Below the pieces are notes generated by a model. The model ran no database searches and had not been told where the DNA came from. It saw only the letters and a program-made list of their open reading frames with translations. A stretch of 64,000 bases of DNA from Fluviicola sp. (GTDB taxonomy: Bacteria > Bacteroidota > Bacteroidia > Flavobacteriales_D > Crocinitomicaceae): contig NZ_JBCNJT010000001.1 of the NCBI RefSeq assembly GCF_039596395.1, positions 715,315-779,314 on the forward strand. The letters run 5' to 3'. The translations under genes and the position numbers were made by a program. Each line of letters begins with the position of its first letter. Positions within the stretch are counted from its first letter, which is position 1. Below, in pieces: positions 21,448 to 55,524 of this stretch.

Positions 21448-21485
21448 TTTTGTGTTTTTACGAAAATAAGCATTTGAATCAATTT

Positions 21486-21573
21486 TCCCTCTTTGAAGGG
21501 GGATTAAGGGGATGGTCACCCCTCTCTGTCTCTCCCGCCGACTTCCTGTCGGGACAGGCTCCTCAAAAGGAGA
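21486..21573. repeat. Composite REP-like element with nested 27-nt palindromic insert
   Basis: TCCCTCTTTGAAGGGGGATTAAGGGG...ACCCCTCTCTGTCTC[TCCCGCCGACTTCCTGTCGGGACAGGC]TCCTCAAAAGGAGA. Confidence 0.7.
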
Positions 21574-50979: not shown

Positions 50980-53286
<2,307 letters not shown>

Positions 53287-54099
53287 TTAAAATAATTTCG
53301 TCTTAAAGATCTTCGGGCGGATGGTGAACTGTTCTTTGGTTTGTTCTTCCCTGCGCCAGAGAATTCCCATGCGTCCCAGATCAACGGAAACATGGAAACG
53401 CGGATCGGAGGAGAGGTATTTCCAGCAATCCCACATGTCTTCGCTCCAGCGGATATCATCCAGGATGAATGCGGTGTTGCTGTGTGTCTGATCGAATAGT
53501 TTGTCGATGTATTCCATGGTGGCTTTCCCGGAGTGATTTCCGTCCAGGAAGACCAGGTCGTATTTCCCGATTGCGGGAAGTTCCAGGAAATCGTCGAAAG
53601 AACTGCAAATGGTTGTAATACCGGAAAGGTTCCAGCTGTCAAACTGCCTGGATGCACGCGATAGAATGGCATCGCAGCCTTCAACGGTAATCAGATGCCC
53701 GGAAGGATTACCGGACTTTAAATGAATGGAGCCTGTTCCGATGGATGTTCCCAGTTCCAGCATCAATGCGGGTTTGTAGTGGTTTGCCAGTTTCCATAGA
53801 ATGTCGCCGTAAATGCCTTTGCTGCTGGCGTTTTTTGCAAGTTCTGAAACGGAACGGCTTGTCCCGGCCATGCGGGAAGTCTTTCCCATTTGTTTGGATC
53901 CTGCACCTAAATCGATTATTTTAAATTGTTCCGTATCCTTTTTGACTTTTTGTAGCCATTTTTTTCGTGCAGAGAGAAAATTTTTATCCACTTTTGTCGT
54001 TAGACAGTTGTCGACAAAGTCGAATACAAAGGGAGAATGAATGCCATGTCTGCCTTTAGATTTGAGTAAAAATCCGAAAATTGATTTGGAATTTTGCAT
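53287..54099 (-). CDS. O-methyltransferase-like class I SAM methyltransferase
   Basis: HGIHSPFVF, DLGAGS, LELGTSIG, FLDGNH, ILDDIRWS. Confidence 0.9.
   Translation of the reverse strand: MQNSKSIFGFLLKSKGRHGIHSPFVFDFVDNCLTTKVDKNFLSARKKWLQKVKKDTEQFKIIDLGAGSKQMGKTSRMAGTSRSVSELAKNASSKGIYGDILWKLANHYKPALMLELGTSIGTGSIHLKSGNPSGHLITVEGCDAILSRASRQFDSWNLSGITTICSSFDDFLELPAIGKYDLVFLDGNHSGKATMEYIDKLFDQTHSNTAFILDDIRWSEDMWDCWKYLSSDPRFHVSVDLGRMGILWRREEQTKEQFTIRPKIFKTKLF
53857..53877 (-). mobile_element. Candidate 21-nt in-frame mini-palindromic insertion
   Basis: TCCCGCATGGCCGGGACAAGC = codons 75-81 (SRMAGTS); same termini as the 21533-21559 insert. Confidence 0.55.
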
Positions 54100-54132
54100 G
54101 ACACAAAGAAACGAAAAAACGCTACAGGAAGC

Positions 54133-55524
54133 ATGCTTATGCTAAAAACTACAATAGAAATACAATCGGAACGCCTGCGGGCTCCGCAACCGGCATTAAA
54201 CCTGGTTTCTGCCTGTAAAATACAGGAAGGGATCATTGCTTTGAGCGACGAGAAAATTGCGGATCTGGCGCAAACATTTTATCAATCGACCAAAAAGATT
54301 TCGGTCTTTATTCCGGCATCCGGTTCGGGATCACGTATGTTCCATTTCCTGTTTGAATTTCTGGATAACCCGAATGAAAGCAATAGCGGATATGTAGAGC
54401 GTTTCCTGACACATATTGAAGATTTTGCGTTTTTCTACCAGTTCCCCGGCTCTATTCAAAAAGCTTTGCGAAACAGGAGCATGGACCTGGATGCTTTCGT
54501 GTCATTTATCCTGAACAATAAAGGCTACGGGTTGGCGCATCTTCCGAAAGGGTTGATCCCGTTCCATAAAAACGGGCCTTTCTTATTGTGCCCGATCCAG
54601 GAACATGTGGTTCAGGGGCAATTGCTGAACCAAAATGCGTGTTCGTTCCATTTTACGATCCAGCCCAAATTCCAGGAGTACATTCAACGGCAGCTGGAGT
54701 TTCTCGAAGGAATGACATCCCGGAAATTCGATGTGGATTTCTCGGTACAGAATATTGAAACCAACGCGGTTGCTTTTGACGATAATTACCAGCCGATCCT
54801 GAATCCGGAAGGCGATTTGCTGACCAGGCCGGCCGGACATGGTGCTTTACTGGAAAATTTCGGCCAATTGGATGCAGATCTGATTTTCATCAAGAACATC
54901 GATAATATTCAGCATTACAACCACTCGGAAACGGCAATCGAAACACAGCGCATGCTGGGCGGTTTATTCCTGGAAGTGCAGGAAGAAGTGCAGAAACTGA
55001 TCGCTGATTTTTCGGAAGAGGCATGGAATGATTTCAACAGCGAATATCAATTATTCCATGAATCGGTGAATGGTTTGTCGCACCGGGAGAAACTGGAGTT
55101 GCTGAAAAGACCGCTTCGCATTTGCGGAATGGTGCGCAATGAAGGCCAGCCGGGAGGAGGTCCGTTCTGGGTTGAGAATAACGGCGAAATCACGAAGCAA
55201 ATTGTGGAAAAAGCGCAAATCAATCCTAAAAGCGACCAGGTGCGGGTGATGATCCAGTCTTCGCATTTTAACCCGGTAATCATGGTTTGCCAGGGAAAAA
55301 ACAACGATGGTTCGAAAATCGACCTGGATGCATTTAAAGACGAGAATGCGTATTTCAAAGTGAGTAAATCACATAATGGGCAATCCATTCATTTTGTGGA
55401 GCTTCCGGGGCTTTGGAACGGTTCGATGGCGAAATGGAATACGGTTTTCGTAGAAGTGCCTAGCAAAACGTTCAGCCCGGTGAAATCCATTCTGGATTTA
55501 TTGGATAAGGCGCATCAACCCTGA
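54133..55524 (+). CDS. DUF4301 family protein
   Basis: FIPASGSGSRMF, LPKGL, RPAGHGALL, FIKNIDN, EGQPGGGPFW, LPGLWNGSMA; start uncertain (54094-54139). Confidence 0.88.
   Translation: MLMLKTTIEIQSERLRAPQPALNLVSACKIQEGIIALSDEKIADLAQTFYQSTKKISVFIPASGSGSRMFHFLFEFLDNPNESNSGYVERFLTHIEDFAFFYQFPGSIQKALRNRSMDLDAFVSFILNNKGYGLAHLPKGLIPFHKNGPFLLCPIQEHVVQGQLLNQNACSFHFTIQPKFQEYIQRQLEFLEGMTSRKFDVDFSVQNIETNAVAFDDNYQPILNPEGDLLTRPAGHGALLENFGQLDADLIFIKNIDNIQHYNHSETAIETQRMLGGLFLEVQEEVQKLIADFSEEAWNDFNSEYQLFHESVNGLSHREKLELLKRPLRICGMVRNEGQPGGGPFWVENNGEITKQIVEKAQINPKSDQVRVMIQSSHFNPVIMVCQGKNNDGSKIDLDAFKDENAYFKVSKSHNGQSIHFVELPGLWNGSMAKWNTVFVEVPSKTFSPVKSILDLLDKAHQP

Follow-up and report, generated by a model that had tools for sequence, protein, structure and literature searches.

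A 21-nucleotide palindromic insert in a Fluviicola methyltransferase gene and the family of ultra-short hairpin modules to which it belongs

A methyltransferase gene in a 64,000-nucleotide stretch of DNA from Fluviicola sp. (hereafter, the window) has gained seven residues in a surface loop from a 21-base hairpin inserted in frame. This hairpin belongs to a family, confirmed here, of ultra-short palindromic modules measuring about 21 nt. The explanation favoured here, to which we give somewhat better than even chances, is that the insert is one copy of a very short repeat resembling the repetitive extragenic palindromes (REPs), and that such modules are moved as single-stranded hairpins, in trans, by a Y1/HUH enzyme of the REP-associated tyrosine transposase (RAYT) type. 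The window corresponds to C1:715315-779314 of a 4.64-Mb genome in 5 contigs, labelled G000. Compared genomes are likewise given G numbers, and L numbers designate individual inspected loci bearing a module or candidate module. The genus set comprises 36 Fluviicola genomes, and the family-wide sample comprises 201 genomes from 29 genera of the family holding Fluviicola.

The 270-aa product of the methyltransferase gene matches Pfam family PF13578 (Methyltransf_24) with an E-value of 6.9e-07 and 30.5 bits (cut-off, 26.3). Among 384 homologs, the close ones are nearly all 263 aa long, and a 22-sequence alignment places a clean 7-aa gap exactly at the residues SRMAGTS in 21/21 aligned relatives, which bears out the in-frame palindromic insert of the original prediction. 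When the seven residues are removed, the protein reads GAGSKQMGKTRSVSELAK, the exact ortholog sequence. At the DNA level, the native site is AAGAC/CCGTTCC (the slash marking the junction, here and below), to which the window copy adds 21 bases. The filled form is restricted to G000 and G005 within the genus set, the other 34 of the 36 genomes showing the clean 7-aa gap. In an AlphaFold2 model of the protein (mean predicted local distance difference test score, pLDDT, 83.7; predicted template modelling score, 0.82), residues 66-78 have a pLDDT below 50 and lie between strands 58-61 and 80-83. The insert (residues 75-81) is, thus, predicted to fall mostly in a flexible loop directly past the DLGAGS motif, with its last residues entering strand 80-83.

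The 18-nt core of the insert, TCCCGCATGGCCGGGACA, has exactly one further occurrence in G000, at C1:1631015-1631032 on the minus strand, in a homolog of N-acetylmuramoyl-L-alanine amidase. The two copies, identical at 18/18 bases, are the sole two in this genome, for a chance expectation of about 1e-4 by our arithmetic. Translated in frame, the amidase copy gives SRMAGTG, close to the N-terminus of the protein. Its site is AGAT-CCCGCATGGCCGGGACAGGTAA-GATC in G000 vs AGAT-G-GATC in 10 aligned same-genus orthologs, that is, 22 nt in place of a G, for a net gain of 21 nt. In six further close genomes of the genus, the amidase match is 1134-1137 nt long, against 1158 nt in G000, and the amidase cluster members at 90% identity or more are all 379 aa long, without the insert. 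Because it is absent from both the same-genus orthologs and these closely similar proteins, the amidase insertion is lineage-specific and recent, and the 18 identical bases shared with the methyltransferase copy also point to recent copying. A search for the exact 18-mer in 185k species genomes was uninformative, with 30 scattered matches in unrelated phyla for about 17 expected by chance from 596 Gb (our arithmetic).

The wider family emerged from a search of the genus genomes for the 18-mer with up to three mismatches, which returned many related hairpins with compensatory changes in the stem. Their consensus, of about 21 nt, is TCCCGN-N4-N'CGGGA-CARG-Y, which folds into a 6-bp stem (TCCCGN / N'CGGGA) with a 4-nt loop, followed by the tail CARG-Y. 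The motif TCCCGNNNNNNCGGGACARG has about 95 matches in the 36 Fluviicola genomes vs 0 for a reversed control pattern, so that the further copies beyond chance expected from the original prediction do exist; in the family-wide sample, it is found in 12 of the 29 genera, again with 0 for the control. Strict copies number 1-15 per genome, dispersed and mostly intergenic, and only two of the approximately 15 family members in G000 lie in genes. In a conservation profile built from 84 sites with distinct flanks, the TCCCG / CGGGA stem is invariant by construction of the search motif. Position -1 is A in 74% of these sites, the loop follows the consensus A-N-N-G and the tail CA-R-G-[T/C]-T, and conservation is at background outside about -1 to +23/+24. 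The sixth stem pair is complementary in 81% of 54 distinct 21-mers, as A-T, C-G, T-A, or G-C. Seen on the opposite strand, a 4-nt tag, CYTG, stands directly 5' of a perfect palindrome, and neither GTAG nor CGTC is present. No stop codon occurs in any of the six frames in 83% of the distinct 21-mers (28% of shuffles), and because the unit measures 21 nt, an in-frame outcome requires no further assumption.

A second member, of 27 nt, lies in an intergenic region of the window (Table 1). The original prediction had linked it to the methyltransferase insert by its termini, and relatives with the same tail in G048 and other genomes agree with this assignment. A joint pattern, TCCCG-N3-18-CGGGACARGC, was written to fit both sites once they were known; the window contains two occurrences of it, vs 0.01 expected (100 shuffles, none reaching 2). 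The genome-wide pattern search that had been proposed recovered the two known sites and no others in 4.6 Mb; with the last three bases relaxed, it yielded the exact 18-nt copy in the amidase gene and about 12 further members. Removal of the 27-nt element leaves flanks that form a small hairpin (...TCTCC-TCAAAA-GGAGA...), in keeping with the preference of modules for palindrome tips described below. Relatives in a similar host context, cct/TCCCG..CGGGACAGGC/tctccaaaggagg, are present in G048, G011, G019, and two other genera, copies of the same type and tail in the context cct/module/CTCTCCAAAGGAGG occur in the same three genomes and in other genera, and the tail CAGGCTCYTMAAAGRAG is also carried by relatives in G048 and other genomes.

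Table 1. Positions, within the window, of the two palindromic elements and of the sequences that host them.
Feature	Position	Strand	Remarks
21-nt hairpin module TCCCGCATGGCCGGGACAAGC	53857-53877	minus	codons 75-81, SRMAGTS, in-frame insert
Host gene, class I S-adenosylmethionine-dependent methyltransferase (Methyltransf_24, YrrM-like), 270 aa	53287-54099	minus	open reading frame and Pfam match
27-nt intergenic family member TCCCGCCGACTTCCTGTCGGGACAGGC	21533-21559	plus	12-nt loop, tail CAGGC
Host intergenic palindrome region of the 27-nt member	21486-21573	plus	flanks form a small hairpin

Filled and empty versions of the same site were also found in other contexts. An aspartyl-protease-like gene (FDTGA motifs) carries 21 additional bases at one site in nine genomes, including G000, and shows a clean 7-aa gap in five aligned genomes. 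In G043, the site reads GGAGA/TCCCGGAGGGTCGGGACAAGT/TGTG (DPGGSGQV), and the G000 copy has decayed to DPSGTGGT. This insertion is an old event that has diversified as a peptide across species. Its presence does not track the tree, since the sister species G020 (L203, filled) and G050 (L206, empty), joined with 100% bootstrap, differ by exactly 21 nt, which could reflect seamless loss or the exchange or replacement of alleles. Three genes, thus, carry a 7-residue module insert with an open frame and with orthologs showing clean 7-aa gaps (those of the methyltransferase, the amidase, and the protease-like protein), and the idea of ultra-short palindromes adding peptide to proteins stands for at least these three.

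Outside genes, long intergenic arrays of G000 (C1:1214000-1224600) hold at least six filled units, CCACGGAGGAACACAG/A[TC]CCCGAA..GTCGGGACAG/GTGAAC, with a 20-nt insert, and at least three empty ones, CCACGGAGGAACACAG/GTGAAC. These arrays are made of 120-180-bp units of short degenerate tandem motifs (CACGGAGGAA / CACAGGTGAA / CGCAGATG), about half of which contain the module, and they are interspersed with small genes whose sequences look GNAT-like. In G008 and G024, a dispersed repeat of about 65 nt has the module at its centre, ggATAGACA[module]TGTCTATttgccc; for this repeat, an Rfam scan returned no relevant family and only an adjoining cobalamin riboswitch. At two G008 loci, L108 (C1:791569-792386) and L109 (C7:165337-166154), the inner module is flipped relative to the outer arms of ATAGACA[module]TGTCTAT, a tiny inversion between 7-bp inverted repeats. 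Here and in the transposase-flanking hairpins described below, the inserted segment always measures 20-21 nt. One further coding insert, in G043 (L151), is only probable, as the linker in which the module is found is variable and does not show the clean 7-aa gap. Two other candidates were rejected: an apparent reverse-orientation insert in a secretion-type protein of G019 (L193) is a chance match whose orthologs differ by only 2 aa, and L142, taken for a gene, is a low-complexity repeat array.

Modules also show a preference for palindrome tips. With the module removed, the two flanks pair with a mean minimum free energy of -4.54 kcal/mol vs -2.84 kcal/mol for permuted flanks (z = -5.5; 0/200 permutations as low as observed), and strongly complementary flanks were found at 13/45 independent sites. 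As flanks pair better than permuted ones, modules tend to occupy the apex of palindromes that pre-date them. The native methyltransferase (GGAA-AGACCCG-TTCC) and amidase (GAT-GG-ATC) sites are, by inspection, weak small palindromes. Tandem units of 66-92 nt were also noted directly upstream of a tRNA gene in three other genera, namely tRNA-Met at L260 (G120:C10:112150-112850), tRNA-Met at L261 (G176:C151:7650-8250), and tRNA-Arg at L262 (G097:C9:134350-134850). Each unit comprises the first 12 nt of the tRNA (e.g., GGTCCTATAGCT) and then, at once, the module, and the last unit runs into the intact tRNA (...TAGCT/CAGTTGG). These arrays look like the result of repeated events at the D-arm position of tRNA genes.

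The methyltransferase insert is old. Its 90%-identity protein cluster holds empty 263-aa forms, along with additional filled variants of metagenomic origin, SRTGETS, SRIGGTS, ARIDGTS, TRTNGTS, SRMGRTS, and SRKDGTS, the last with a 3-aa deletion close by. The seven diversified filled variants form one gene lineage with other substitutions in common, for example KKDTE and ALMLELG where the contrasted forms have KKNKE and LTLELG. Independent insertions at the same site in G000 and G005 were, therefore, rejected. The radiation is poorly resolved in a three-gene tree; G000 and G005 pair weakly in the methyltransferase gene tree (65%), and G000 groups with G011/G048/G019 in the concatenated tree (78%). 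The simplest reading of these sequences is one old insertion followed by lineage sorting or recombination, the insert being inherited by a sub-lineage and evolving as peptide. For the original interpretation, the existence of filled and empty sites in several unrelated contexts is a supporting point; the methyltransferase copy, being inherited and old, does not represent a recent event.

At the DNA level, the other filled methyltransferases read ...ATRGGCGGAACAAGC or near variants, and only G000 reads ...ATGGCCGGGACAAGC, with an intact right arm, this stretch being exactly the 18 bases common with the amidase copy. Because this intact-arm form is unique to G000 among filled copies, sequence moved in the G000 lineage from one to the other of the two loci, methyltransferase and amidase, which lie 860 kb apart. 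The direction of this transfer is ambiguous: the methyltransferase copy may have been the donor, or an old methyltransferase copy may have been overwritten.

The Y1/HUH enzyme sought alongside the module was found physically associated with it in three genomes. A 183-aa RAYT (here, type A) scores 101 bits on the NCBIfam model NF047646 (REP_Tyr_transpos, cut-off 80), and GGCRCGAGC...GCTCGYGCC hairpins border its gene. Their tips bear the module, as GAGCGAGA/TCCCGAATAGTCGGGACAGGT/CGCTCGC, on both sides of the gene in G049, in inverted orientation, and on the upstream side in G005 and G048. The corresponding hairpin downstream of the gene in G005 and G048 is empty, GAGCGAGA/CGCTCGC, as are those of G003, G042, and G020. 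A second Y1-like protein (type B, 188-192 aa) scores 46 bits on the same model, below the cut-off; its gene is single-copy, in conserved synteny, and no flanking hairpins were found for it. It is intact in G019, G001, and G043 (aligned), and eight other genomes of the genus have an open 188-192-aa reading frame. By our tally, type B is present in 12/20 genomes with modules vs 2/16 without, which is weak evidence because type B and modules follow the same clade. As the obvious mobiliser, this gene is a doubtful candidate, given its lack of flanking hairpins, its conserved synteny, and a frameshift in G000.

Under the RAYT-type reading, one copy of the module family, which is present at low copy number across Fluviicola and related genera, entered the methyltransferase gene in the ancestor of a sub-lineage. 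Being 21 nt long and usually stop-free, it would have been tolerated as a 7-residue extension of the flexible loop after DLGAGS, and would since have evolved as ordinary coding sequence. The same module entered the protease-like gene long ago and, only in G000, the amidase gene recently. Modules would be cut out or copied as single-stranded hairpins and pasted in trans by a RAYT-type Y1/HUH tyrosine transposase, with landing preferred in exposed hairpin loops or other single-stranded DNA. A stronger version, which we consider less likely than not, is that the 16-nt hairpin and its 4-5-nt tag, 21 nt in all, would constitute a complete mobile unit and the smallest known transposable DNA, moved single-stranded by a Y1/HUH enzyme in trans and preferring exposed hairpin loops such as the REPs of another RAYT or the D-arm position of tRNA genes.

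Several observations weigh against this reading. The outer palindrome around the type A gene seems to be the RAYT's own REP, and the RAYT flanks of G003, G042, and G020 are without the module, which may, therefore, be a passenger instead of the substrate of this enzyme. G000 itself has neither the type A RAYT, nor remnants of it, nor its GCACGAGC-type outer REPs, and its type B gene (minus strand of C2, about 21.5-22.0 kb) is out of frame through the loss of 1 nt near codon 49, possibly as a genuine pseudogene and possibly through an error of assembly. It is in the lineage of this genome, without an intact Y1 gene, that the most recent insertion, that of the amidase, arose; mobilisation in trans by an enzyme, as first proposed, accordingly stays a matter of inference. 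The two copies sharing 18 identical bases have different tails (CAAGC vs CAGGT), and the amidase junction requires one extra substitution, so that the simple cut-and-paste of a fixed 21-mer fits imperfectly. Copy numbers are far under typical REP populations, which usually count tens to hundreds of copies per genome, and no bias in module orientation relative to the replication strand was seen over the few sites of G000.

Another way of accounting for these observations is spread without a dedicated enzyme, through errors of replication or repair (template switching, for instance, or the ectopic copying of short patches from one hairpin-forming sequence to another), for which stable GC-rich hairpins at palindrome tips are what would be produced and kept. 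We consider this unlikely, although several points speak in its favour: microhomologies (AAATGG..AGA upstream, GTTCCGTTT downstream) are common to the flanks of the methyltransferase and amidase copies, the junctions are not uniform (20, 21, or 22 nt), the flipped inner hairpins between 7-bp inverted arms in G008 are what template switching would give, and G000 is without an intact Y1 gene. Nevertheless, random template switching is expected to copy local sequence, not a conserved distant motif, and the same 20-nt motif, including its non-palindromic tail, is kept across 12 genera in unrelated flanks, with 0 for the control. The microhomologies, moreover, mispredict the junctions, which are AGA/TCCCGC in the amidase gene and GACT/TCCCGC in the methyltransferase gene. 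The module could also be the binding or crossover site of a site-specific recombinase, as is dRS3 in the arrays of Neisseria intergenic mosaic elements (NIME), the coding inserts being rare by-products. It resembles dRS3 in size and form (20 bp, ATTCCC-N8-GGGAAT, with a 6-bp terminal inverted repeat; PMC1797815), it occurs in arrays alternating with variable 50-180-bp units, and the tandem units of tRNA 5'-fragment and module beside tRNA genes of three genera resemble repeated site-specific events. Yet reciprocal recombination between two sites would not yield a clean 21-nt insertion in a gene, covariation of the stem with a free loop suggests a folded single strand instead of a duplex operator, and no candidate recombinase or phage was identified (no search for one was made), which leaves this explanation a rather slim chance.

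Modules might, in addition, be excision footprints of a longer transposon with TCCCG... inverted termini, whose imprecise excision would join the ends through a variable loop. Conserved arms, a variable centre, and covariation of the arms are indeed what the terminal inverted repeats of transposon subfamilies would leave behind, but no long element bounded by such termini was seen in G000 or at about 100 inspected sites. The loop length is fixed at 4 nt, the asymmetric conserved tail CARG-Y is not mirrored on the left, target-site duplications are lacking, and the 18-nt identity between two sites covers the supposedly variable centre, all of which make a footprint highly improbable. As for an origin in situ, by local duplication or slippage, with an accidental palindromic look, 5-bp inverted repeats are common and TSR is repeated on both sides in the peptide (KT-SRMAGTS-RS). 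However, the two TSR repeats use different codons, the insert matches a CAAG-tailed module of G008 at 17/21 positions, only 0.01 occurrences are expected in shuffles, and the identical 18-mer in an unrelated gene effectively refutes such an origin, which can hardly be entertained any longer.

Among the closest known systems are REPs and REPINs with their RAYTs, notably the small group-3 REPs, such as those of Stenotrophomonas (23 nt) and Marinomonas (5-bp stem) (PMC3733652, PMC8266576, PMC3116915). REPs are palindromes of 20-40 bp with a GTAG or CGTC tag, of which some lie wholly inside open reading frames and some families are inserted in small palindromes (PMC3733652). RAYT (TnpA-REP) cleaves single-stranded REPs 5' or 3' of the hairpin and then rejoins them; biochemical characterisation has covered REPs of 23 nt and REPs with 5-bp stems, and the role of the tag is like that of the guide tetranucleotide in the IS200/IS605 insertion sequences (PMC8266576). 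Like a REP, the module is a short, GC-rich, dispersed, and mostly intergenic palindrome with a conserved 4-nt tag 5' of its stem; some copies lie in frame in open reading frames and some in small palindromes, filled and empty sites coexist, and, in G049, a RAYT gene is flanked by module hairpins in inverted orientation. Unlike REPs, it has the tag CYTG, few copies, and a nested position, capping a REP that belongs to the RAYT and differs from the module; it is absent from RAYT flanks in other species. Furthermore, the window's genome has modules and no intact RAYT, and no REPIN-type doublets were seen. The module is, accordingly, classed as working like a small REP; because its tag is neither of the two known ones and the RAYT association is equivocal, membership of the REPs is not established.

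The module shares with the Rickettsia palindromic elements (RPEs) its in-frame position in open reading frames and the tolerance of the added peptide on the protein surface. It differs from them by its 21 nt, the absence of a CGTC tag, and its occurrence in Bacteroidota, RPEs being found in Alphaproteobacteria with no transposase known to be linked to them. The classic RPE-1 measures roughly 100-150 bp. It has been counted among 'longer palindromic insertions' (PMC3733652), and the short RPE-4 and RPE-6 are CGTC-tagged, unlike the module. The IS200/IS605 'peel and paste' transposons and their palindrome-associated derivatives also rely on a Y1 enzyme that recognises hairpins, with guide tetranucleotides 5' of the hairpin foot; their excision and insertion are seamless and leave no target duplication, which would explain the clean filled and empty sites. 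These transposons, however, are at least hundreds of bp long and depend on two subterminal hairpins that differ from one another, whereas the whole unit would here be one 16-nt hairpin plus 4-5 nt; conservation stops about 1 nt left of the hairpin and 5-8 nt right of it.

Very short selfish palindromes that spread within a genome are also known from organelles. Yeast mitochondrial GC clusters are of this kind, and some organelle mini-palindromes invade coding regions. The module resembles them, and in particular the organelle palindromes of Volvox (PMC2670323), in its small size and its spread; those elements, nevertheless, belong to organelles of eukaryotes, with no mechanism known for them, and are unrelated to it in sequence. 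The likeness to Neisseria dRS3/NIME extends to the build of the 20-bp unit, whose centre varies between 6-bp terminal inverted repeats, and to its arrays, in which it alternates with variable repeat units of 50-150 bp (PMC1797815). Unlike the module, dRS3 is present in hundreds of copies, is the target of a phage-encoded recombinase, has no reported in-frame coding inserts, and lacks an asymmetric tail, and where dRS3 bounds the array units, the module lies inside them (120-180 bp in G000, 66-92 bp in other genera). Overall, the particular module family may be undescribed, as had been suggested, and its class of architecture is known, small REPs, intragenic REPs, and REPs in palindromes being already published (PMC3733652, PMC8266576).

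If the module does move as proposed, it would mark a lower size limit for a mobile unit of DNA, and would constitute a natural case of a selfish hairpin that lengthens protein loops by exactly seven residues and is long retained. A mobile unit of 21 nt, a multiple of three and usually stop-free, would also be a ready-made mutagen for 7-residue loop insertions. The nesting of a hairpin at the tip of another RAYT's REP, together with the arrays of tRNA 5'-fragments, suggests a target rule based on exposed single-stranded loops. Movement of the module would, moreover, bring Bacteroidota, and a different tag, into a REP/RAYT biology studied mainly in Proteobacteria. In genome annotation, the module explains puzzling 7-aa indels among Fluviicola orthologs.

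Some minor features complete the description of the window and its genome. The methyltransferase gene is neighboured by a 735-aa peroxidase-domain gene (catalase-peroxidase-like; 50980-53187, minus strand) and a DUF4301 gene (54094-55524, plus strand), and since metagenomic contigs with filled methyltransferase variants carry the same neighbour genes, the locus is syntenic. Next to the 27-nt element, the stretch ccctctttgaagggggattaaggggatggtcacccc (window positions 21483-21526) is a separate small repeat family, with partial matches at C1:848844, C1:1862815, C3:348683, and others. G000 also contains, at many places genome-wide (e.g., C1:665256, 856738, 1425425, and 1475039, and C2:187483), long hairpins resembling intrinsic terminators, with a GTCCCG-loop-CGGGAC tip (gggcgTCCCGGATATCCGGGACgcccc...tttt), which have the same 5-bp core as the module without the CARG tail.

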